This document shows positions 7,036-63,445 of a stretch of DNA of 64,000 nt, in pieces (the first letter of the stretch is position 1; every line of letters starts with the position of its first letter). The notes beneath the pieces were generated by a model, which was given only the letters and a program-made list of their open reading frames with translations, had not been told where the DNA came from and made no database searches. The position numbers were made by a program, and so were the translations under genes. The DNA is taken from the NCBI RefSeq assembly GCF_029227855.1, contig NZ_CP074356.1; one strand, given 5' to 3'. The stretch is from Escherichia coli. Its GTDB lineage: Bacteria; Pseudomonadota; Gammaproteobacteria; Enterobacterales; Enterobacteriaceae.

Positions 7036-7125
7036 GGAGAGATGCCGGAGCGGCTGAACGGACCGGTCTCGAAAACCGGAGTAGGGGCAACTCTACCGGG
7101 GGTTCAAATCCCCCTCTCTCCGCCA
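7036..7125 (+). tRNA. serU: tRNA-Ser (anticodon CGA); prophage attachment target
   Basis: GGAGAGATGCCGGAGCGGCTGAACGGACCGGTCTCGAAAACCGG...CCCCCTCTCTCCGCCA, 90 nt with long variable arm; its 3' 62 nt are repeated at 63384..63445. Confidence 0.9.
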
Positions 7126-7177: not shown

Positions 7178-8203
7178 TTACTTGGAATATTTTCTTGGAA
7201 TATTTTCAGGTAACGGGACATCAAGTGTCGGTGAAACTTTAACCTTCCTGTCATAGATTAGCACTTGCCCCTCGGTTTTGTGACCAGAGAAAAGTTGCTT
7301 ATCCCGACTGCTTCCTTCATAGTCTGAAATTCCTTTCGCCTTCAGATCATGAAAGGTGAAGTCGGTTAAAATACCTGAAATTTTGCCTGCGCGATTTCTT
7401 GCTTCTACCCACATTTCGTTAAAGCCTTTGTACATATATCGGTTGCCGTACTGATTGCTGATTACATAGGCGGATGTTGGTAACTGTTTTGCTTTTTCGA
7501 TCGCCGCCTGTAATCGTGGACTCCATGCTTTTATCTGTTTTTTTCCTGTTTTCCCTTGCTGGATAAAGATCCCGTCGTTTCCAATCTGCTCCCATTTCAG
7601 CGATAACACATCGGAAACCCTCGCTGCACACAGATAGGCAATTTCCATTGCGATAAAAACAGGAAGAGGTGCAACGCTTAATACTGCCTGGTATTCTTTG
7701 TCGGTTACATATCGTTCGCGGTTTTTGGCCTTGAATTTACTTACACCTGCACATGGGTTAGCCTTCACGTACCCTCGCTCATACCCCCAACTGTAAACGC
7801 GGGACATACTGCTTTTTTCATGGTTGGCTTGCGTTTTACTCTGTTCCCCTCTCTTGTCCATGTATCGACGGATGTGTTCTGGTTTTATGGAATCTGCCGG
7901 CACCTTACCGAATACGGCAAGCAACTTTTTTTGATGTTGCAGATAATCTTTTTGTGTTCTTGGACTGAGGTCACTGTAATAGGCGCTGGCGAGGAATTTT
8001 TCCCACAAGCGACCGAATGTCATTGCACGATCGCGATTATTTACAGTTTCCTCATACTTTTTCCATAAAGCAGCTAAACCATCCTTGATGGCGGTTAGTG
8101 TTACAGATTCTCTGGATGTTGGTTTCCATACATAACTATATTTATTTGGGTATACATTTGGAGGTAATTTTTCGTGTTCAGGATTTTTCCTTCGTCTTCC
8201 CAT
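7178..8203 (-). CDS. int: Prophage tyrosine integrase
   Basis: 341-aa ORF next to tRNA-Ser with a lambda-family integrase C-terminal region (..AWSPRLQAAIEKAK.., ..HDLKAKGISDYEGS..). Confidence 0.9.
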   Translation of the reverse strand: MGRRRKNPEHEKLPPNVYPNKYSYVWKPTSRESVTLTAIKDGLAALWKKYEETVNNRDRAMTFGRLWEKFLASAYYSDLSPRTQKDYLQHQKKLLAVFGKVPADSIKPEHIRRYMDKRGEQSKTQANHEKSSMSRVYSWGYERGYVKANPCAGVSKFKAKNRERYVTDKEYQAVLSVAPLPVFIAMEIAYLCAARVSDVLSLKWEQIGNDGIFIQQGKTGKKQIKAWSPRLQAAIEKAKQLPTSAYVISNQYGNRYMYKGFNEMWVEARNRAGKISGILTDFTFHDLKAKGISDYEGSSRDKQLFSGHKTEGQVLIYDRKVKVSPTLDVPLPENIPRKYSK

Positions 8204-20692: not shown

Positions 20693-20769
20693 CGGTCCTT
20701 TAGCTCAGTGGTGAGAGCGAGCGACTCATAATCGCCAGGTCGCTGGTTCAAATCCAGCAAGGGCCACCA
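20693..20769 (+). tRNA. Phage-borne tRNA with CAU anticodon (Met or lysidine-Ile2 type)
   Basis: GGTCCTTTAGCTCAGTGGTGAGAGCGAGCGACTCATAATCGCC...GGGCCACCA; cloverleaf folds. Confidence 0.85.
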
Positions 20770-20874: not shown

Positions 20875-20951
20875 GCGTTGTTAGCTCAGCCGGACAGAGC
20901 AATTGCCTTCTAAGCAATCGGTCACTGGTTCGAATCCAGTACAGCGCGCCA
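20875..20951 (+). tRNA. Phage-borne tRNA-Arg (anticodon UCU)
   Basis: GCGTTGTTAGCTCAGCCGGACAGAGCAATTGCCTTCTAAGCAATCGGTCACTGGTTCGAATCCAGTACAGCGCGCCA. Confidence 0.85.
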
Positions 20952-52972: not shown

Positions 52973-55900
52973 ATGGGCAAAGGAAGCAGTAAGGGGCATA
53001 CCCCGCGCGAAGCGAAGGACAACCTGAAGTCCACGCAACTGCTGAGTGTGATTGATGCCATCAGCGAAGGGCCGATTGAAGGTCCGGTGGATGGATTAAA
53101 AAGCGTGCTGCTGAACAGTACGCCAGTGCTGGACACTGAGGGGAATACCAACATCTCCGGCGTCACGGTGGTGTTCCGGGCCGGTGAGCAGGAGCAGACA
53201 CCGCCGGAGGGATTTGAATCCTCCGGCTCCGAGACGGTGCTGGGTACGGAAGTGAAATACGACACGCCGATCACCCGGACCATCACGTCGGCAAACATTG
53301 ACCGACTGCGTTTTACCTTCGGCGTGCAGGCACTGGTGGAAACCACCTCAAAGGGGGACAGGAATCCGTCGGAAGTCCGCCTGCTGGTTCAGATACAACG
53401 TAACGGTGGCTGGGTGACGGAAAAAGACATCACCATTAAAGGCAAAACCACCTCACAGTATCTGGCCTCGGTGGTGGTGGGTAACCTGCCGCCGCGCCCG
53501 TTCAATATCCGGATGCGCAGGATGACGCCGGACAGCACCACAGACCAACTGCAGAACAAAACGCTCTGGTCGTCATACACCGAAATCATCGATGTGAAAC
53601 AGTGCTACCCGAACACGGCACTGGTTGGCGTGCAGGTGGACTCGGAGCAGTTCGGCAGCCAGCAGGTGAGCCGTAATTATCATCTTCGCGGGCGCATTCT
53701 GCAGGTGCCGTCGAACTATAACCCGCAGACGCGGCAATACAGCGGTATCTGGGACGGAACGTTAAAACCGGCATACAGCAACAACATGGCCTGGTGTCTG
53801 TGGGATATGCTGACCCATCCGCGCTACGGCATGGGGAAACGTCTTGGTGCGGCGGATGTGGATAAATGGGCGCTGTATGTCATCGGCCAGAATTGCGACC
53901 AGTCAGTGCCGGACGGCTTTGGCGGCACGGAGCCACGCATCACCTGTAATGCATACCTGGCCACACAGCGCAAGGCGTGGGATGTGCTCAGTGATTTCTG
54001 CTCGGCGATGCGCTGTATGCCGGTATGGAACGGGCAGACGCTGACGTTCGTGCAGGACCGACCGTCCGATAAGGTGTGGACCTATAACCGCAGTAATGTG
54101 GTGATGCCGGATGATGGCGCGCCGTTCCGCTACAGCTTCAGCGCCCTGAAGGACCGCCATAATGCCGTTGAGGTGAACTGGATTGACCCGGATAACGGCT
54201 GGGAGACGGCGACAGAGCTTGTGGAGGACACGCAGGCCATTGCCCGTTACGGTCGTAACGTCACGAAAATGGATGCTTTTGGCTGTACCAGCCGGGGGCA
54301 GGCACACCGCGCCGGGCTGTGGCTGATTAAAACGGAGCTGCTGGAAACGCAGACCGTGGACTTCAGCGTGGGCGCAGAAGGGCTGCGCCATGTACCGGGT
54401 GATGTTATTGAAATCTGCGATGATGACTATGCGGGGATCAGCATTGGCGGGCGCGTGCTGGCGGTGAACAGCCAGACCCGGACGCTGACGCTCGACCGTG
54501 AAATCACGCTGCCATCCTCCGGTACCACGCTGATAAGCCTGGTTGACGGAAGTGGCAATCCGGTCAGCGTGGAGGTTCAGTCCGTCACCGACGGCGTGAA
54601 GGTAAAAGTGAGCCGTGTTCCTGACGGCGTTGCCGGATACAGCGTATGGGGGCTGAAGCTGCCGACGCTGCGCCAGCGCCTGTTCCGCTGCGTGAGTATC
54701 CGTGAGAACGACGACGGCACGTATGCCATCACCGCCGTGCAGCATGTGCCGGAAAAAGAGGCCATCGTGGATAACGGGGCGCACTTTGACGGCGAACAGA
54801 GTGGCACGGTGAATGGTGTCACGCCGCCAGCGGTGCAGCACCTGACCGCAGAAGTCACTGCAGACAGCGGGGAATATCAGGTGCTGGCGCGATGGGACAC
54901 ACCGAAGGTGGTGAAGGGCGTGAGCTTCCTGCTCCGTCTGACCGTAACAGCGGACGACGGCAGTGAGCGGCTGGTCAGCACGGCCCGGACGACGGAAACA
55001 ACATACCGCTTCAGGCAGCTGGCGCTGGGGAACTACAGGCTGACAGTCCGGGCAGTAAATGCCTGGGGGCAGCAGGGAGACCCGGCGTCGGTATCGTTCC
55101 GGATTGCCGCACCGGCAGCGCCGTCACAGATTGAGCTGACTCCGGGCTATTTTCAGATAACCGCCACGCCGCATCTTGCGGTTTATGATCCGACGGTACA
55201 GTTTGAGTTCTGGTTCTCGGAAAAGCGGATTGCGGATATCAGGCAGGTTGAAACCACAGCACGCTATCTTGGCACGGCGCTGTACTGGATAGCCGCCAGT
55301 ATCAATATCAAACCGGGCCATGATTATTATTTTTACATCCGCAGTGTGAACACCGTTGGCAAATCGGCATTTGTGGAGGCTGTTGGCCAGCCGAGTGATG
55401 ATGCATCCGGCTATCTGAATTTTTTCAAAGGAGAGATAGGGAAAACCCATCTGGCTCAGGAGCTGTGGACGCAGATTGATAACGGTCAGCTTGCGCCTGA
55501 CCTGGCGGAAATCAGAACGTCCATCACGGATGTCAGTAATGAAATCACGCAGACCGTCAATAAGAAACTGGAAGACCAGAGTGCGGCAATCCAGCAGATA
55601 CAGAAGGTTCAGGTTGATACAAATAATAACCTGAACAGCATGTGGGCTGTGAAGCTGCAGCAGATGCAGGACGGACGCCTTTATATCGCGGGTATTGGTG
55701 CCGGTATTGAGAATACCCCTGACGGTATGCAGAGTCAGGTGCTGCTGGCGGCGGACAGGATTGCGATGATTAATCCTGCGAATGGCAACACAAAACCGAT
55801 GTTTGTTGGTCAGGGCGATCAGATATTCATGAACGAAGTGTTCCTGAAATATCTGACGGCTCCCACCATTACCAGCGGCGGTAATCCTCCGGCATTTTCC

Positions 55901-56452
55901 CTGACACCGGACGGGCGGCTGACGGCGAAAAATGCCGATATTAGCGGTAACGTGAATGCGAACTCCGGGACGCTCAACAACGTCACGATTAACGAGAACT
56001 GCCGGGTTCTGGGAAAACTGTCCGCGAACCAGATTGAAGGCGATCTCGTTAAAACAGTGGGCAAAGCTTTCCCCCGGGACTCCCGTGCACCGGAACGGTG
56101 GCCATCAGGGACCATTACCGTCAGGGTTTATGACGATCAGCCGTTTGACCGGCAGATTGTTATTCCGGCGGTGGCATTCAGCGGCGCTAAACATGAGAGA
56201 GAGCATACTGATATTTACTCCTCATGCCGTCTGATAGTGCGGAAAAACGGTGCTGAAATTTATAACCGTACCGCGCTGGATAATACGCTGATTTACAGTG
56301 GCGTTATTGATATGCCTGCCGGTCACGGTCACATGACGCTGGAGTTTTCGGTGTCAGCATGGCTGGTAAATGACTGGTATCCCACAGCAAGTATCAGCGA
56401 TCTGCTGGTTGTGGTGATGAAGAAAGCCACCGCAGGCATCAGTATCAGCTGA
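52973..56452 (+). CDS. J: Central tail fibre / host specificity protein J
   Basis: 1159 aa, lambda gpJ-like. Confidence 0.95.
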
Positions 56453-56519: not shown

Positions 56520-57119
56520 ATGCGTAAAGTTTGTGCCGCCATTTTTTCCGCAGCCATTTGTCTGGCCGTATCCGGTGCGCCTGCATGGGCATCTGAACAT
56601 CAGTCCACGCTGAGCGCGGGGTATCTTCATGCCTCGACGAACGTTCCCGGCAGCGATGATCTGAACGGGATTAACGTGAAATACCGTTATGAGTTTACGG
56701 ACACACTGGGGATGGTGACGTCATTCAGCTATGCAGGAGACAAGAATCGCCAGCTTACCCGTTACAGCGATACCCGCTGGCATGAAGATTCCGTGCGTAA
56801 CCGCTGGTTCAGCGTGATGGTGGGGCCGTCTGTGCGCGTGAATGAATGGTTCAGCGCGTATGCGATGGCGGGTATGGCTTACAGCCGTGTTTCGACTTTC
56901 TCCGGAGATTATATCCGCGTAACTGACAACAAGGGGAAAACGCACGATGTGCTGACCGGAAGTGATGACGGTCGCCACAGCGACACGTCTCTGGCATGGG
57001 GGGCTGGCGTGCAGTTTAACCCGACCGAATCCGTGGCCATTGATATTGCTTATGAAGGTTCCGGCAGTGGCGACTGGCGCACTGACGGTTTCATCGTGGG
57101 TGTCGGTTATAAATTCTGA
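56520..57119 (+). CDS. lom: Outer-membrane protein Lom (Ail/Lom family)
   Basis: 199 aa with signal peptide and beta-barrel ending ..GVGYKF. Confidence 0.85.
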
Positions 57120-57177: not shown

Positions 57178-59583
57178 GTGGATATGGCAGCAGTAAAAAT
57201 CTCAGGTGTGCTGAAAGATGGTGCGGGAAAACCAATACAGAACTGCACTATTCAACTGAAGGCAAAGCGTAACAGCACCACGGTACTGGTGAACACGGTG
57301 GCCTCTGAAAATCCGGATGAAGCCGGGCGTTACAGCATGGATGTTGAGTATGGCCAGTACAGCGTCACCCTGCTGGTTGAAGGTTTTCCGCCTTCGCATG
57401 CCGGGACCATTACCGTCTATGAAGGTTCCAGACCAGGTACGCTGAATGATTTTCTCGGTGCCATGACGGAAGAGGATGTCATGCCGGAGGCATTGCGCCG
57501 TTTTGAGGAAATGGTGGAAGAAGCGGCACGCAACGCCGAAGCCGCCTCTCAGAGCGCAGCGGCGGCAAAGAAATCCGAAACGGCTGCGGCATCATCGAAG
57601 AACGCGGCGAAAACCTCAGAAACGAATGCAGCTAATAGTGCACAGGCGGCAGCGACCTCAAAGACTGCATCGGCAAACTCCGCGACAGCAGCCAAAAAAT
57701 CAGAAACCAACGCGAAAAATAGCGAGACAGCCGCAAAGACGAGCGAAACCAACGCAAAGTCCAGCCAGACGGCAGCGAAAACCAGCGAAACGAATGCCAA
57801 AGCCAGTGAAACTGCGGCAAAAAACAGCCAGGTTGCAGCAGCCCAAAGCGAGAGCGCGGCAGCCGGTTCTGCGACTTCAGCAGCTGGATCAGCAACTGCT
57901 GCGGCTAACAGCCAGAAAGCTGCGAAGACGAGTGAAACTAACGCAAAGTCCAGCCAGACGGCAGCGAAGACCAGCGAAACGAATGCCAAAGCCAGCGAAA
58001 CTGCGGCGAAAAACAGCCAGGTTGCAGCAGCCCAAAGCGAGAGCGCGGCAGCTGGTTCTGCAAGCGCGGCGGCTGCTTCTGCCACTGCATCAGCCAACAG
58101 TCAAAAAGCGGCAAAAACCAGTGAAACCAATGCAAAGACAAGCGAGACTGCAGCGGCGAACTCGGCGAAAGCATCGGCAGCAAGCCAGACAGCAGCTAAA
58201 GCAAGTGAAGACGCAGCCAGAGAGTATGCAAGTCAGGCAGCAGAGCCGTATAAATATGTCTTACAGCCACTGCCTGATGTGTGGATACCGTTTAACGATT
58301 CACTGGATATGATTACGGGCTTTTCGCCGTCATATAAAAAAATTGTTATTGGTGATGATGAAATAACGATGCCTGGCGACAAGGTTGTTAAGTTTAAACG
58401 CGCATCAACTGCCACATATATCAATAAATCAGGCGTATTTAGTGTTGCTAAAATTGATGAGCCACGATTTGAAAAAGAAGGTTTATTGATTGAAGGACAG
58501 CGCACTAACTATTTTGTTAAATCCAATACTCCCGCTGAATGGACGAGTACCAGCAATATCGATAAAACTAATAATGGTGTTGATGAATTTGGTTTTTCAT
58601 ATGCCAAAATGCGAACAAAAGATAATATGACAGGACAATCATCTGCACTTAGTCTGCATACATGCAGTGCATCCCGGGGGATTGATGTTAGTGGCGATAA
58701 TAAGTATTGCACTGTTTCATGCAGGGTTAAAGCTCCTGATGGTCTTCGTTGTCGTTTGCGTTTTGAAAAATACGATGGGTCGGTTTATACATTTTTAGGA
58801 GATGCTTATTTAACTTTCGGAACTCTGATAATAGAAAAAACTGGCGGAGCAGCCAATAGAATAGCAGCTACTGCAACTAAAGATCCGGTTACAGGGTGGA
58901 TTTTCTATGAGGCAACTATAGAAGCTGTTGAAGGTGAAGCCTTAATTGGCGCAATGATTCAGTATGCGCCGAAAAAAGGTGGTATAACTGAAGCGGGAGA
59001 TTATATTTACCTTGCAACACCACAATTTGAAAACGGCGGATGTGCTTCATCTTTTGTTATTACGACAACTGCACCCGCAACCCGCTCCAGTGATATGGTG
59101 ACGATCCCAACTGAAAATAATATCTATAATAGACCGCTTACGTGTCTTGTCGAGGTCAATAGAAATTGGGGCGATATTCCTCCTAATGTAGCACCGCGTA
59201 TTTTTGATTTTTCTGGTGTGCCACCTATTGAGTCAATTACATACGCTTTTAACACAACTGAGAAATATTACGGTCAGCTTTATATACAAACTTATAAAGC
59301 GTCGACAAGTACTTACGTTTCTAGTGTGTTTGCTGGTCGAACTGATGTTCGAAAATTCATTGGTGGTTTTAATATTTATTCTGATGGTACTAAACGAGTA
59401 GTTTCTAACGGTGAGGCTACTAAAACTATGAAAACGGAGTGGACGGGCGTAAAAACACGGACCTTTATTCGAATTGGAGGTCAAGCCACATCGGGAACTC
59501 GTCATCTATTCGGCCATTTGAGAAATCTTCGTCTCTGGCATAAAGAATTAACTGATGCGCAAATGGGGGAGAGTATTAAATGA
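57178..59583 (+). CDS. stf: Side tail fibre protein with internal tandem repeats
   Basis: 801 aa; lambda Stf-like N-terminus; Ser/Ala/Thr-rich repeats; lower-GC C-terminal domain. Confidence 0.8.
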   Translation: MDMAAVKISGVLKDGAGKPIQNCTIQLKAKRNSTTVLVNTVASENPDEAGRYSMDVEYGQYSVTLLVEGFPPSHAGTITVYEGSRPGTLNDFLGAMTEEDVMPEALRRFEEMVEEAARNAEAASQSAAAAKKSETAAASSKNAAKTSETNAANSAQAAATSKTASANSATAAKKSETNAKNSETAAKTSETNAKSSQTAAKTSETNAKASETAAKNSQVAAAQSESAAAGSATSAAGSATAAANSQKAAKTSETNAKSSQTAAKTSETNAKASETAAKNSQVAAAQSESAAAGSASAAAASATASANSQKAAKTSETNAKTSETAAANSAKASAASQTAAKASEDAAREYASQAAEPYKYVLQPLPDVWIPFNDSLDMITGFSPSYKKIVIGDDEITMPGDKVVKFKRASTATYINKSGVFSVAKIDEPRFEKEGLLIEGQRTNYFVKSNTPAEWTSTSNIDKTNNGVDEFGFSYAKMRTKDNMTGQSSALSLHTCSASRGIDVSGDNKYCTVSCRVKAPDGLRCRLRFEKYDGSVYTFLGDAYLTFGTLIIEKTGGAANRIAATATKDPVTGWIFYEATIEAVEGEALIGAMIQYAPKKGGITEAGDYIYLATPQFENGGCASSFVITTTAPATRSSDMVTIPTENNIYNRPLTCLVEVNRNWGDIPPNVAPRIFDFSGVPPIESITYAFNTTEKYYGQLYIQTYKASTSTYVSSVFAGRTDVRKFIGGFNIYSDGTKRVVSNGEATKTMKTEWTGVKTRTFIRIGGQATSGTRHLFGHLRNLRLWHKELTDAQMGESIK

Positions 59584-59861
59584 AAGATTTAACACTCAAA
59601 TTTGCAGACAGGGCCGACTTTTCGGCCTTTATGGAGAGCATTGGCTATTATGATGACGAGTCGATGCAGGATGATATTCTTATTGACGTGATAGGTAATG
59701 TGTACAAAGAAACCGGAGAACTGACTGAAGATGGCGAACCGGTATGTGTTAAGGAAGACGGATATTTTGTAAACGTGCGCATCATTAATGATTCGCAAAT
59801 ATCGTCAATATTCGATGAATACGTGGTTGCTGTTGAGCATCAACTTCGTGGCTGGATGTGA
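59580..59861 (+). CDS. Hypothetical tail-fibre-associated protein (93 aa)
   Basis: Start overlaps the stf stop. Confidence 0.45.
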   Translation: MKDLTLKFADRADFSAFMESIGYYDDESMQDDILIDVIGNVYKETGELTEDGEPVCVKEDGYFVNVRIINDSQISSIFDEYVVAVEHQLRGWM

Positions 59862-59870
59862 GGAAGAAAA

Positions 59871-60911
59871 ATGGCTACATCGACAGTAATTCCTGATGAC
59901 ATCAAAACGCTAAAATCCGACGTTAGCAAATTAAAAAACGATCAAGGAAGCTACGCAACAAAATTATATGTAGACAGCAAAGATGAAATCGTTGGTGACT
60001 GGTCTGTTTCATGGTATCAGCAGGTATTGCCAACTAGCGGAGCTATATTTGGGAGAAAACTCCGCTCAACTCACAGGACGGCAGGTGTTGAGGATGCGTA
60101 TTGCGAACTATACCTCAAAAAATGGATAGACAGTCCAGGTAACGCAATGGCGCGCCTTAACCTGAACGATAACGGGACAAACATTTGCTGGGACTTTACC
60201 AACCTTTATGGCGGTACGATGATTTTTCCCGGTGACAGCGGATACCTCAAAATGGGTAACTGCCTTATGTCATACAGCAAGCGTGGAAGTAACGCGCTTA
60301 TTAAATTTGATTACACCGACACATTACAGATCAAATATGCCAATCATGGGTCAACCATGACATTAAACACACAGGGAACCGCTTATGCTGGTGTTACTGC
60401 TCAATTGTGGGGCAACTCCAGCCGTCCTGTTGTTTATGAAGTCGGTGTTGATGGTGGCGCTTATATGTTCTATGCGCAGAAAAATACCGATAACACCTAT
60501 ATGTTAAGCGTTAATGGTGCATGTCATGCCACCGCATTTAACCAGCATTCCGACCGGGATCTGAAAGACAACATTCAGGTGATCGATAATGCAACCGACC
60601 GCATCCGTAAAATGAACGGCTATACATACACGCTTAAAGAAAACGGTATGCCCTATGCTGGTGTCATTGCACAGGAAGCTCTGGAAGCAATCCCAGAAGT
60701 TGTAGGTTCCGCAATGAAATATCAGGACGGTGCGAGCGGATCGGAAGGTGAAGAAGGTGAACGTTATTACACAGTAGATTATTCTGGTGTTACTGGCTTG
60801 CTTGTTCAGGTAGCCAGAGAGTCAGACGACAGAATAACAGCACTGGAAGAAGAAAACGCAGAATTAAGACAAAGATTATCTGCAATTGATGCGGCGCTTG
60901 CGTCTAAATAA
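59871..60911 (+). CDS. Second tail fibre/spike protein with C-terminal intramolecular-chaperone (S74-like) domain
   Basis: C-terminus ..HQHSDRDLKDNIQVIDNATDRIRKMNGYTYTLKENGMPYAGVIAQEALEAIPEVV.. resembles the autoproteolytic chaperone module. Confidence 0.65.
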   Translation: MATSTVIPDDIKTLKSDVSKLKNDQGSYATKLYVDSKDEIVGDWSVSWYQQVLPTSGAIFGRKLRSTHRTAGVEDAYCELYLKKWIDSPGNAMARLNLNDNGTNICWDFTNLYGGTMIFPGDSGYLKMGNCLMSYSKRGSNALIKFDYTDTLQIKYANHGSTMTLNTQGTAYAGVTAQLWGNSSRPVVYEVGVDGGAYMFYAQKNTDNTYMLSVNGACHATAFNQHSDRDLKDNIQVIDNATDRIRKMNGYTYTLKENGMPYAGVIAQEALEAIPEVVGSAMKYQDGASGSEGEEGERYYTVDYSGVTGLLVQVARESDDRITALEEENAELRQRLSAIDAALASK

Positions 60912-60938
60912 TATTAAGGGGCCGAGCGCCCCGTTTTA

Positions 60939-61247
60939 TTGGGTAGGATGAAAATGGATATAACACCTTTCCTTCATGCGCTTTGTGCTGTGGCTGCGCA
61001 GCTACTGATTGGTCTTTTTACCGGGAACTGGGCTTACGGGGCGATAGCCGGTTGTACGTTCTTCATTGCGCGTGAACACACCCAGGCAGAATATCGCTGG
61101 ATCGAAATGTTCGGGCATGGCAAGCGAATGAATATGCCGTGGTGGGGCGGTTTTGATCCACGCGCGTGGGATGTGGCAAGCCTGATGGATTTTGCTGTGC
61201 CGGTGGTGGCGTGTCTGCTGGTCTGGCTGTTGGTTAATCGTGGGTGA
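60939..61247 (+). CDS. Hypothetical membrane protein (102 aa)
   Basis: Two predicted TM helices. Confidence 0.4.
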
Positions 61248-61386
61248 AAAAAGGTGGGCTGTATATGCAACGGAGGAAGAAACCACGTTGCTGGAAGCCT
61301 GGAAGAAGTATCGGGTGTTGCTGAACCGTGTTAATACAACAACTGCACCGGATATTGAATGGCCAACAGTACCCATTATCGAATAG
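61240..61386 (+). pseudogene. tfa: Tail fibre assembly protein (Tfa) C-terminal remnant
   Basis: ..[34 protein letters not shown] matches the conserved Tfa C-terminus; no N-terminal region. Confidence 0.5.
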
Positions 61387-61459: not shown

Positions 61460-62791
61460 TTATTTTGAGTGAATTATCACCTTGTTTTTTCCGGTTCTTT
61501 TGGCTTGATATAACGCTTTGTCGGCATTGACTAACATTTCAGATGGACTGAGATTATTCTCTTTTGAAGCAAAGCAACCAATACTGACAGTTATTTTCTC
61601 AGGTCCATGCGATAATAATTTTTCCGAGCATTGCTCTTCAATGTTTTTTCTGATTCGCTCTGCAATTGATAGCAAGAGTTTTTGAGTATTACCTTTAATG
61701 ATAATACCGAACTCCTCACCGCCTAAGCGCCCTAATATATCCTCTTTCCTGATGGATTTTTTTATTATTCTGGTAACCATTACTATGACTTGATCACCCA
61801 TATGATGCCCCCATTTGTCATTGATGCTTTTGAAACTGTCAATATCTAACATTATTACTGAGAAATCATGGTGTTTTGATATATTCTTCAATGAGTCAAT
61901 AAAGTATCTTCTATTGTATGTATTCGTTAGTGGATCATGAATTGCCATATGATTAGCATGATTTAATTTCCTGAAAACATAATACATGAGTGTTGAAATG
62001 ATATAAATCATTGATATCAATTCAAGAAATTTTGTCATGTACCATGCAGGATGGGATTTATCAATAAAATACAATAAAATTAGATTATTGCATACTGACA
62101 CTATACTAATAAGTATTATACACAACCATATTTTTGAGTAATTACGTATGCTGATGCATGAGCTGATAAGTAATACAAGCCAAAATACTGATATTATTTT
62201 GGTGTACACGATATTCCACGTCGACAAATGACGATTCAGCGAGTATTGTATAATATTAAGACTATATTTTATATGGTCACTGCTTAGATTTTTTGCTACA
62301 AACGGAGTAATAAAAAGAATTAATATTGACAAAACAACAATTATTATGTTTCTTTTATCTTCTAAAATACTTTTATTTTTAACATTGGTGGAATAAACAG
62401 CCAGAAAGATTATAGATATAAAGCTGAACTGACGGAATAGATAATATATTGCGATATCATTTGATTTCTGATAGATTGTAGATAAATCGTTACCTAACGG
62501 AGATAAAGAAATAATAGCCACTTCTAATAAATAATACGTGTTGCTCAAAAACGCGAATGAAAGAATTAAGAGATAACTTTGTCTCTGATTAGAAACATAG
62601 TAAAGCAATAGAAAAATAAAAATCATCAGGTTTATGAAAAAAAGCCCAATAATGAAAACACTATAACTTATTTGTGTTGTTTGTGTTATGTATATTCCAT
62701 TATTTTCATGCAGTAACAAAAATATAATAGAGATGCATGAAAATAAAAAGATGAAGATTTTTATTTTTATAGGTACCTGGTTGATAATCAT
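61460..62791 (-). CDS. Membrane-anchored diguanylate cyclase (GGDEF domain), AT-rich moron at prophage right end
   Basis: N-terminal multi-TM region; C-terminal GGDEF with RLGGEEFGII active-site motif. Confidence 0.8.
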   Translation of the reverse strand: MIINQVPIKIKIFIFLFSCISIIFLLLHENNGIYITQTTQISYSVFIIGLFFINLMIFIFLLLYYVSNQRQSYLLILSFAFLSNTYYLLEVAIISLSPLGNDLSTIYQKSNDIAIYYLFRQFSFISIIFLAVYSTNVKNKSILEDKRNIIIVVLSILILFITPFVAKNLSSDHIKYSLNIIQYSLNRHLSTWNIVYTKIISVFWLVLLISSCISIRNYSKIWLCIILISIVSVCNNLILLYFIDKSHPAWYMTKFLELISMIYIISTLMYYVFRKLNHANHMAIHDPLTNTYNRRYFIDSLKNISKHHDFSVIMLDIDSFKSINDKWGHHMGDQVIVMVTRIIKKSIRKEDILGRLGGEEFGIIIKGNTQKLLLSIAERIRKNIEEQCSEKLLSHGPEKITVSIGCFASKENNLSPSEMLVNADKALYQAKRTGKNKVIIHSK

Positions 62792-63383
62792 GTACGCACC
62801 TGAGAATGATATATATATAATATGTATCGCTACAAATAACGATAATTTCTTACTGGTGATAGTATACTATTATTCTGGTTAATCGCTGTCAAATTGATGA
62901 TTTTGGTTAGTATTGCAATAGCGAAGGGTTTGATCCGGTAAGACTGGCTAGGCAAGGCTATACCAAAAAATCAGTGTAGGTTCAGAAAACGATGCACCAT
63001 ACAATCATCAATAATTTCAAATTGTCCATTGTGCATAAATCATAAAGAAAACCGCAGCACGTCGTATGCAAGAACGTGCTGCGGTTGGCTGGTGAGCTTT
63101 CGATAGTGCGAGTATTGAATGATTTCCAGACGTTACCGATTTTATATAACTGCAGTGGAATTATTCAACACACAGGCAAAACGGAATAAGCTGAGAAAAA
63201 AGCGTGCTTTCCCAATCTGGGGCAAATCACGTCTGAATGACACCTGAAAACAGGTGGTAGCCTCAAGAAGGCTTGGAATATTCTTCTTTAATGTTATGTA
63301 ATTCATTGATTTTTCTTGTACGATTTTAAGACATTTATTCCAAGAAAAATTTTTAACTCTTTGATTTTTCGACTCTGTATCAT

Positions 63384-63445
63384 CGGTCTCGAAAACCGGA
63401 GTAGGGGCAACTCTACCGGGGGTTCAAATCCCCCTCTCTCCGCCA
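63384..63445 (+). repeat. Prophage right attachment site: 62-bp copy of the serU 3' end
   Basis: CGGTCTCGAAAACCGGAGTAGGGGCAACTCTACCGGGGGTTCAAATCCCCCTCTCTCCGCCA identical to 7064..7125. Confidence 0.85.

Follow-up and report, generated by a model that had tools for sequence, protein, structure and literature searches.

A side-fibre module was replaced by recombination in the lambda-like prophage (56 kb, integrated at a tRNA-Ser(cga) gene) that we found in the analysed window, a stretch of 64,000 nucleotides of the Escherichia coli contig NZ_CP074356.1. In the far part of the side-fibre locus, an ancestral 'Stf tip plus Tfa' was probably swapped for a tfa-less cassette that would give a branched side fibre. 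This clarifies the annotation of the window as an intact, probably two-headed side fibre accompanied by an apparently dead tfa stub. The features of the prophage that are relevant here are the following.

7064-7125: attL, 62-bp repeat partner of attR
57178-58263, + strand: proximal part of stf, with a lambda-type N-terminal anchor (PF08400) followed by Ala/Ser/Thr-rich repeats
58264-59583, + strand: distal half of stf (aa ~363-801), left portion of the imported low-GC cassette
59580-59861, + strand: orf93, small acidic alpha/beta protein (phrog_1361), with an ATGA overlap with stf
59871-60911, + strand: orf346, second-fibre ORF of 346 aa, with the Shine-Dalgarno sequence GAGGA 7 nt 5'
59871-60548, + strand: predicted mature part of orf346 (aa 1-226), with N-terminal peptide, coiled coil, beta region and gp34-like domain
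60549-60911, + strand: C-terminal S74 intramolecular chaperone domain of orf346 (aa 227-346; PF13884)
60918-60932, no strand assigned: GC-rich hairpin and T-run, terminator-like (pattern scan only), right edge of the S74 cassette
60954-61247, + strand: orf97, intact gene for a small membrane protein of 97 aa (phrog_1443)
61267-61386, + strand: tfa remnant, codons 156-194 and stop, pseudogene of a lambda/Qin-type tail fibre assembly gene
61460-62791, - strand: MASE4-GGDEF diguanylate cyclase (PF17158, PF00990), AT-rich prophage cargo with a GC content of 29.7%
63384-63445, + strand: attR, 62-bp perfect copy of the tRNA-Ser(cga) 3' end, true right end of the prophage

A second fibre with an S74-type C-terminal module had been proposed besides stf in a preliminary description of this DNA, and domain searches bore this out. 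The Pfam search revealed a match of orf346 to Peptidase_S74 (PF13884) at aa 227-278 with an E-value of 4.8e-14 and 52.8 bits (cut-off 22 bits), and the full-length protein matched PHROG 4563 ('tail fiber protein'). When 52 homologues were combined into a profile, it matched the solved S74-type domains of S16 gp37 (6f45, E 4e-9) and of the MYRF auto-processing domain (7dc3, E 1.6e-6) and, immediately before the S74 region, a fibre domain of T4 gp34 (profile positions 169-223, E 7e-8). All 52 aligned homologues have Ser227 and Lys232. Both lie in the motif HSDRDLKDNI, which aligns with SSDRRIKKDI of S16 gp37, and self-cleavage is predicted before Ser227. The C-terminal position of the domain, the serine as its first residue and the lysine five residues further on are shared with the S74 domains of K1F endosialidase, T5 pb1, S16 gp37 and MYRF; the passenger in the window differs from those systems in comprising merely 226 aa. 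This passenger consists of an N-terminal peptide, a short coiled coil, a variable beta-rich region and the gp34-like trimerisation domain (aa ~172-226), behind which the S74 domain is located. The latter has a long C-terminal helix, as in known S74 domains. In the AF2 monomer model, a helix spans residues 9-23 and beta strands occupy residues 58-128 and 175-214. Its confidence is moderate (pLDDT 66.6), as expected because a monomer was modelled from an interdigitated trimer, and a Foldseek comparison of the model with the PDB yielded nothing at E <= 0.001 (top match T4 gp34, E 0.015, TM ~0.16), so that we gave this comparison no weight. We found no enzymatic or known receptor-binding domain in the passenger. 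The Pfam search also showed that the PF08400 tail anchor is absent from the 346-aa protein, and attachment in the manner of Stf is therefore impossible for it. The product of orf346 is likely a virion-borne 'extra fibre'.

The lack of a tail anchor would also fit a dead C-terminal fragment of a longer tail fibre that gives no functional protein. Residues 132-342 are homologous to the ends of fibres of 450-1200 aa (comparison with PHROG 6578), and most protein matches cover only 47-57% of the orf346 query. This reading is nevertheless very unlikely. The full-length 346-aa family is conserved and has its own start codon and Shine-Dalgarno sequence, and dN/dS was 0.15-0.25 against the most divergent ungapped copies. 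Moreover, the gene is present in plaque-forming temperate phages as well as in a virulent Nonagvirus and a Tequintavirus, and 2132 sequences belong to its closest protein cluster alone. The N-terminal peptide MxTxTVIPxDIxxLKxDV is kept even between alleles whose overall identity is only 25-46%, which would not be expected of a random fragment. Hence, orf346 is an intact gene under purifying selection.

The fibre gene upstream consists of two parts of different character. Its product of 801 aa carries PF08400 at aa 5-134 (E 2e-66), matches the solved N-terminal domain of lambda Stf (9e7m, E 9e-49), and is encoded by a sequence with 84% nucleotide identity to lambda as far as 57536. The distal half contains a GTA-head-spike-fibre-like domain (NF048003, aa 437-637) and has a LamG/ConA-like C-terminal end. 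The C-terminal motif IRIGGQ..G.RHLFGH.RNFR.WHK.LTD is common to fibres of lambda-like, Queuovirinae and T5-like phages, and the Stf homologue of phage ESCO3 showed a weak match to Laminin_G_3. The GC content is 54.8% in the proximal part compared to 40.0% in the distal half, and across 58264-60911 as a whole it falls from 55% to 40-44%.

The small gene orf93 is translationally coupled to stf through the ATGA overlap and evolves under a dN/dS of 0.1-0.2. Searches of Pfam, NCBIfam and PADLOC gave no match for it, and a fold search with its AF2 model (pLDDT 91) gave no informative one. Matches of the orf93 profile to large proteins (PKD-repeat and TPR proteins, matched over many short stretches) were discarded as spurious. 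The family comprises 77 clusters at 50% identity and occurs in at least 186 phage records, each time at a tail-fibre gene. Phages of about 50 kb, Dhillonvirus and rV5-like phages also have such genes at their fibre loci; in these we examined orf93 alone. The 93-aa proteins are thus uncharacterised accessory proteins of lateral-fibre loci. Literature searches retrieved no paper that characterises either this family or the S74 mini-fibre.

With Tfa missing, another factor must fold the new Stf tip, and orf346 lies downstream of stf, the usual place of chaperone genes. It might accordingly be speculated that orf346 is not a fibre at all and acts in trans as a chaperone for Stf, a functional substitute for Tfa; its homologues in ESCO3 and HMD-P4 are indeed annotated as 'endosialidase chaperone' and 'lateral tail fiber chaperone'. 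However, these names derive from the title of the Pfam domain. S74 domains that have been characterised, such as those of K1F endosialidase and T5 pb1, act in cis on the upstream polypeptide and are then cleaved off. In orf346, the S74 domain is preceded by 226 fibre-like residues including the trimerisation domain, and the middle region varies between alleles as is typical of receptor-binding parts. Furthermore, phage Lambda_2E9 lacks the S74 gene although its Stf is of the same type, and folding of this Stf is therefore independent of that gene. We consider a role as trans-acting chaperone unlikely; orf93 is the better candidate for such a function because it always accompanies the LamG-ended fibre. 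Most likely, orf346 supplies a second receptor-binding subunit, itself exchangeable, that would be attached as part of a branched side fibre.

Analysis of 80 IMG/VR loci supported the gene order. Four of them stop within a few bases of orf93 and were left out of the synteny count; in 76 of the remaining 76, an S74-type gene with the conserved N-terminus starts 10 nt past orf93. Of 69 complete second-fibre ORFs in IMG/VR loci, 30 encoded 346 aa and 28 encoded 234 aa, while three were shortened. Phage PhiR49_1 has a 234-aa allele alongside the same Stf and orf93, which indicates allele swapping. The 234-aa allele would have a mature part of only ~115 aa. This is little for a receptor-binding fibre and counts against the branched-fibre model.

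The order of fibre gene and tfa remnant given in the preliminary description holds in so far as both are present. Their direct adjacency does not: the terminator-like hairpin and orf97 lie in between, and it is orf97 that the remnant physically adjoins. As to the hairpin, the pattern scan found four terminator-like sites compared to 2.6 expected by chance. The orf97 protein, which would be 102 aa long (orf102) if read from the TTG at 60939, has two strongly hydrophobic segments in its hydropathy profile. The gene has a GC content of 54.4% and a dN/dS of 0.04-0.2, and it had no match in Pfam, NCBIfam or PADLOC. In every locus whose sequence extends far enough, the second-fibre gene is followed by orf97; in ESCO3 and HMD-P4, no orf97 was found after the S74 gene. 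It is probably an accessory gene expressed from the prophage (moron).

Alignment with lambda tfa confirmed that only the end of the assembly gene is left, earlier estimated at ~40 codons: 39 codons and the stop remain, with 88% identity to the last 120 nt of lambda tfa (105 of 120 nt; 32 of 39 aa). The remnant matches positions 95-130 of the 131 in the PF02413 (Caudo_TAP) profile (E 1.8e-15) and is not a complete Tfa domain, since the N-terminal fibre-binding part is missing. Compared to intact tfa genes in general, identity is 88-98%, with 98% to some tfaQ alleles. An identical sequence in E. coli strain 20 is called by PGAP as a tfa pseudogene without its N-terminus. The comparison of lambda Tfa with TfaQ, which are ~94% identical over their whole length, shows that this is a true truncation and not a mere limit of conservation.

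Could this short piece still have a function, be it as a small RNA, as a peptide of ~32 aa from an in-frame TTG at 61288, or as a recombination anchor under selection? An Rfam match to IS009 (RF02111) covers 61245-61343 with an E-value of 1e-14, but it scored 69.8 bits, below the gathering score of 117; the IS009 model is built on sequence alone, lacking base pairs, and the segment that it covers here is tfa coding sequence. This match and one to CssrB, also below its gathering score, were rejected. The sequence GGAGGA lies 10 nt before the TTG, but it codes for a Glu-Glu pair conserved in all Tfa proteins. No ATG or GTG stands in frame from the upstream stop to where the homology begins; the only start in that stretch is a TTG at 61192 inside orf97. 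Most copies have an open frame, with polymorphisms at 14 third, 11 first and 4 second codon positions, a spread that is ambiguous because the variation may come from functional tfa alleles; distinct full-length copies were too few for dN/dS to be informative. On the other hand, the remnant is absent from 24 of 44 related loci, one copy contains an in-frame stop (L082), and the 3' end is cut at differing points (~61323, ~61367) by different cargo.

As for a recombination anchor, lambda has been shown experimentally to recombine with Rac and Qin inside the stf/tfa homology, with homologous exchange inside tfa itself (De Paepe et al. 2014, PMC3945230). The window has the same locus, Stf N-terminus and tfa 3' end as these elements, and differs from them in keeping only codons 156-194, without an intact tfa, and in its unrelated fibre tip. 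With 88-98% identity to intact tfa genes the remnant is a usable homology arm for further exchanges. This role, however, follows from the presence of the sequence and involves no sign of selection. A functional remnant is therefore quite improbable, and the sequence evidence indicates that it is a dispensable, decaying and non-functional scar of the replaced module.

Replacement of the module by recombination, as suggested in the preliminary description, was evident from two versions of the Qin prophage. The gene order is stfQ-tfaQ-pinQ in K-12 and stf'-orf93-S74 gene-orf97-tfa'-pinQ in the Qin of the BL21 lineage, represented by C43(DE3). Homology between the two resumes, at 98.9%, at nt 465 of tfaQ. 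This corresponds to Tfa codon ~156, the same breakpoint as in the window. The junction of codon 156 with orf97 is also found in the plaque-forming phages Tritos, PhiR63_1 and 2G7b, in Lambda_2E9 (with the remnant cut at ~61323) and in 20 IMG/VR loci, and it is identical in every related locus that retains the remnant. At least 80% of the 2-kb block is present in 450 of 5426 complete E. coli genomes. Thus, the replacement event is old and common to many loci and not peculiar to the prophage in the window. As there is no flanking homology at the junction of orf97 and tfa, the original event was probably an illegitimate recombination.

Shortened genes are common in decaying prophages, and the degraded prophage of strain MB7671 holds several tfa fragments, so that the truncation could also be regarded as a recent local deletion in a decaying prophage rather than a module exchange. 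The recurrence of one junction in plaque-forming phages, in the C43(DE3) Qin prophage and in the IMG/VR loci leaves very little room for this explanation, which we regard as extremely unlikely. In addition, purifying selection acts on the upstream genes, which are intact, and the prophage in the window retains an integrase ORF and att repeats that match perfectly over 62 bp.

The S74 gene is itself a separate presence/absence cassette (59862-60944). In Lambda_2E9 precisely this segment, which includes the hairpin, is missing, yet orf93, orf97 and tfa' are kept. The S74 gene consequently did not itself displace tfa, and since phages of the Lambda_2E9 type are viable without it, it is not essential. 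The locus represents ordinary phage mosaicism with a widespread cassette.

This low-GC cassette of three genes, comprising the distal half of Stf, the 93-aa protein and the S74 mini-fibre, was also detected behind other fibre anchors: in the virulent Nonagvirus ESCO3, with 90% nucleotide identity from 58264 onward, and at the L-shaped-fibre locus of the T5-like Tequintavirus HMD-P4, whose S74 protein also has the conserved N-terminus. More distant trios occur in Queuovirinae-like contigs at 40% identity and in another lambdoid prophage, whose orf93 is 31% identical. The cassette is thus common to temperate lambdoid prophages and to virulent phages considered for therapy, with up to 90% nucleotide identity, and its sharing is a concrete case of recent flow of a host-range module between the two lifestyles.

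In the branched-fibre model, the lambda-type N-terminal anchor of Stf would bind the tail tip, and from ~aa 363 Stf would continue as the imported distal domain ending in the LamG-like lectin fold. The mini-fibre would be expressed from the late operon and trimerise with the help of its own C-terminal chaperone domain, which the Ser227/Lys232 dyad may then cut off to leave a mature fibre of ~226 aa. Via its conserved N-terminal peptide, this fibre could dock onto the Stf/orf93 assembly and so give a branched side fibre with an additional receptor-binding tip that can be exchanged. The tfa scar of 39 codons is joined to orf97 at a single ancestral junction and has been kept in some lineages. 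It may tentatively be speculated, at somewhat less than even odds, that orf93 and the N-terminal peptide of the mini-fibre make up a portable system, so far undescribed, for docking and assembling second fibres on LamG-tipped lateral fibres without Tfa. If so, lambda-like, Queuovirinae and T5-like siphoviruses could all add a second, freely exchangeable receptor-binding fibre in this way, and the orf93 family would constitute a new class among fibre accessory proteins. The docking peptide is not universal, as the N-termini of the second fibres in two more distant loci (L093 and L096) differ from it.

Branched fibres of comparable layout have been described. In DT57C and DT571/2, branched L-shaped tail fibres are formed by two proteins, LtfA and LtfB (PMC4728585, PMC10713586). 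As in the window, two fibre genes are adjacent at a siphovirus lateral-fibre locus and only the first has a tail anchor; LtfB is thought to attach through LtfA, which provides two receptor specificities. The likeness is one of gene layout; the anchor in the window is of the lambda Stf type (PF08400) and not of the T5 Ltf type, and the two fibre genes of the window are separated by the conserved gene for 93 aa. In the Tequintavirus IrisVonRoten (Bas32), the proximal fibre is predicted to end in a galectin-like domain and to carry a distal fibre with a T5-like receptor-binding domain and an intramolecular chaperone domain (PMC11990801). The galectin-like jelly-roll domain has been proposed as an additional receptor-binding domain, and the receptor-binding parts are often exchanged horizontally (PMC11990801). 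A proximal fibre with a lectin-like end and a separate chaperone-bearing second subunit are features shared with the window, with the IrisVonRoten structures being predicted and not solved. Its distal subunit is larger, 'T-shaped' and has two receptor-binding domains, in contrast to the 346-aa mini-fibre. The paper on Gifsy-1 Stf does not mention chaperones. For fibre engineering, the boundaries revealed here could be used, on the left past the Ala-rich repeats at ~Stf aa 363 and, for the second-fibre allele, between orf93 and orf97.

The prophage was found to run 2 kb beyond the end implied in the preliminary description. An end at 61386 was considered, as the diguanylate cyclase looked chromosomal, and was ruled out by the att repeats and by strain MB7671, in which the same block of tfa' and cyclase adjoins the lambda attB. 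The cyclase, for which PADLOC gave no match, is thus cargo of the prophage.

The tail region at the right end of the window, part of a lambda-like prophage, contains a second fibre gene downstream of stf and, further on, the end of a tail-fibre assembly gene. The features considered here are listed by window position.

7036-7125: tRNA-Ser(cga) gene
7178-8203, minus strand: integrase-sized open reading frame
52973-56452: J, tail region of the prophage
56520-57119: lom, tail region, between J and stf
57178-59583: stf, 801 aa
59580-59861: orf93, 93 aa
59871-60911: orf346, 346 aa
60918-60932: terminator-like hairpin, between orf346 and the tfa remnant
60954-61247 (or from 60939): orf97, 97 (or 102) aa
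to 61386: short frame with Tfa similarity, the tfa remnant
61460-62791, minus strand: MASE4-GGDEF diguanylate cyclase gene, AT-rich (29.7% GC)

The preliminary description had proposed a second fibre with an S74-type C-terminal module, and a Pfam search did place Peptidase_S74 at residues 227-278 of the orf346 product (E 4.8e-14; 52.8 bits, cut-off 22). The protein matches over its full length a PHROGs 'tail fiber protein' family of 346 positions, and PGAP names an identical sequence in E. coli strain 20 'tail fiber domain-containing protein'. Within the motif HSDRDLKDNI, Ser227 and Lys232 are invariant across 52 aligned homologues, down to 25% identity. Among solved structures, a profile built from this alignment matched the chaperone region of Salmonella phage S16 gp37 (6f45, E 4e-9) and the MYRF auto-processing domain (7dc3, E 1.6e-6), and its 55 positions directly N-terminal of Ser227 matched a T4 gp34 trimerisation domain (E 7e-8); that the S74 protein serves purely as a chaperone in trans is, in our judgement, very improbable. 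Going by what is known of the S74 family, the protein is expected to release its last 120 residues by self-cleavage. An AF2 monomer model of moderate confidence (pLDDT 66.6) consists of a helix near the N-terminus (residues 9-23), a pair of beta-rich blocks and, at the C-terminus, a long helix; a fold search with it gave no significant match. Purifying selection (dN/dS 0.15-0.25 against the most divergent ungapped copies) and a good Shine-Dalgarno sequence in front of the gene indicate that orf346 is live and encodes a short fibre-like protein, and there is little chance that it is a dead fragment.

GC content falls from 55% in proximal stf to 40-44% over 58264-60911 (distal stf, orf93 and orf346) and returns to 54% in orf97. 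The low-GC 2.6-kb stretch (58264-60839) shares 90% identity with the virulent Nonagvirus vB_EcoS_ESCO3 (OM386652.1, phage record L007), in which a fibre gene is followed by a 93-aa gene and a 351-aa S74 protein. A temperate and a virulent (Queuovirinae) phage have here exchanged a fibre module fairly recently; temperate-virulent exchanges outside tail-fibre genes are considered rare (PMC3945230). The same trio was found in Queuovirinae-like contigs with an S74 protein only 40% identical, in a lambdoid prophage with an orf93 homologue 31% identical, and in the Tequintavirus HMD-P4 at the L-shaped-fibre locus, straight after the collar protein gene. Wherever the C-terminus of the first fibre was read, the protein ends in the LamG-like motif IRIGGQ..G.RHLFGH.RNFR.WHK.LTD, in degenerate form in one related locus (L095), and the small gene overlaps or abuts the first fibre's stop codon in every case.

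Among 80 IMG/VR loci whose orf93 shares at least 91% identity with that of the window, four stop within a few bases past orf93; in all of the 76 reaching further, the next gene lies 10 nt on and opens with MxTxTVIPxDIxxLKxDV. This peptide is kept across alleles otherwise only 25-46% identical, and also in HMD-P4. Two second-fibre alleles dominate, of 346 aa (30 loci) and 234 aa (28 loci), both with S74 domains. In phage PhiR49_1 the 234-aa allele accompanies Stf and orf93 of the window's type (98% identity), showing that the second fibre is swapped independently; it is also optional, since phage Lambda_2E9 precisely lacks segment 59862-60944, with orf97 starting 12 nt after orf93. The orf93 family comprises 77 clusters at 50% identity, without a Pfam, NCBIfam or PADLOC match, and databases list its members only as 'hypothetical protein'. 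Members were found in 186 phage records, classed by genus label or genome size as lambda-like, T1-like, Dhillonvirus, Queuovirinae, T5-like and rV5-like; with few exceptions they lie at a tail-fibre gene.

Of 5426 complete E. coli genomes, 3452 contain parts of the feature and 450 contain most of the 2-kb block. The feature is thus common, and standard pipelines already annotate it; what modest novelty remains concerns the conserved cassette of three genes and the uncharacterised 93-aa protein in it. In the best-supported model, a lambda-anchored Stf would bear an imported, lectin-tipped distal domain, orf93 would be an accessory of Stf, the S74 mini-fibre would dock through its N-terminal peptide and serve as a second receptor-binding subunit that can be exchanged, and the tfa remnant would be a scar. 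The nearest described counterparts are the branched LtfA/LtfB fibres of DT57C (PMC4728585, PMC10713586) and the predicted fibres of IrisVonRoten, in which a proximal fibre with a galectin-like domain bears a distal fibre with a chaperone domain (PMC11990801).

The proximal part of stf (~57550-58200) encodes Ala/Ser/Thr-rich repeats (..SETNAKSSQTAAKTSETNAKASETAAKNSQ..), shows strongly positive AT skew and includes an internal duplication of ~190 bp (cross-matches 57718-57979 and 57907-58155).

The claim that only the last ~40 codons of a tail-fibre assembly gene are left was borne out as well. The last 36 of the 131 positions of Caudo_TAP (Tfa) match the short frame (Pfam, E 1.8e-15), and 61266-61385 is 88% identical to the final 120 nt of lambda tfa (105/120 nt, 32/39 aa); PGAP annotates the identical sequence in strain 20 as a tfa pseudogene 'missing N-terminus'. 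The remnant does not directly follow the fibre gene as described, as the hairpin and the intact orf97 lie between them. Over their whole length, lambda Tfa and K-12 TfaQ share about 94% identity, and loss of codons 1-155 is therefore a true truncation. In place of the K-12 Qin order stfQ-tfaQ-pinQ, the Qin prophage of the BL21-lineage strain C43(DE3) has stf'-orf93-S74(234 aa)-orf97-tfa'-pinQ. Identity between the two, at 98.9%, resumes exactly at tfaQ nt 465, which is also the breakpoint in the window; this supports the proposed replacement of a receptor-binding module by recombination. Because this breakpoint is shared and the remnant starts at Tfa residue 156 in every related locus keeping one, the sequences point to one ancestral orf97/tfa junction that was later inherited and spread; a recent local deletion is hardly credible.

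At its 3' side the remnant is complete in the window, before the cyclase gene, and is cut by cargo in relatives (~61323 before sitABCD, ~61367 before pinQ and others). One copy has an in-frame stop, 24 of 44 related loci with sequence past orf97 have no remnant at all, and no usable start codon was found for it. The remnant is a pseudogene scar, and we give a functional product very little credence. Its similarity to intact tfa (up to 98% identity with some tfaQ alleles) makes it a potential crossover site; recombination of lambda with Rac and Qin at a tfa crossover site has been shown experimentally (PMC3945230). The Rfam family IS009 (RF02111), a model without base pairs, matches 61245-61343 with 69.8 bits, under its gathering score of 117. 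As the 3' part of its consensus is tfa 3' coding sequence, this family may in part describe tfa pseudogene remnants.

Strong purifying selection (dN/dS 0.04-0.2) acts on the membrane protein gene orf97 (phrog_1443). Most matching E. coli genomes carry it and the virulent phages sharing the fibre cassette lack it, a distribution that would fit a lysogen-expressed function such as superinfection exclusion. The position after its homologues is a cargo hot spot (related loci L045, L057, L061, L068, L081, L086 and L092), occupied by pinQ, sitABCD, a cdtABC-like toxin operon, ParA/ParB-like genes, a gene for a 1362-aa protein, or a ybcY-like methyltransferase with an omptin.

A 62-bp perfect direct repeat at 7064-7125 and 63384-63445, corresponding to the 3' part of tRNA-Ser(cga), marks attL and attR; together with the integrase-sized frame it bounds an element of ~56 kb. 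The right-hand copy rules out a prophage end at 61386, and the cyclase gene is prophage cargo. In strain MB7671 the block of tfa remnant and cyclase gene (99% identity) adjoins ybhB-bioA, the lambda attB, and hence travels with lambdoid prophages using different integration sites. The prophage also contains tRNA-Met (20694-20769) and tRNA-Arg(tct) (20875-20951) genes. Near its right end, an element of ~97 bp (63052-63148) is 82-90% identical to the lambda b region (NC_001416 24162-24259), phages Tritos and Lambda_2E9, and K-12 Qin; a weak Rfam CssrB match under the gathering score (62988-63083) overlaps its left edge, and PGAP labels 63073-63144 within it a 'capsid protein' fragment.
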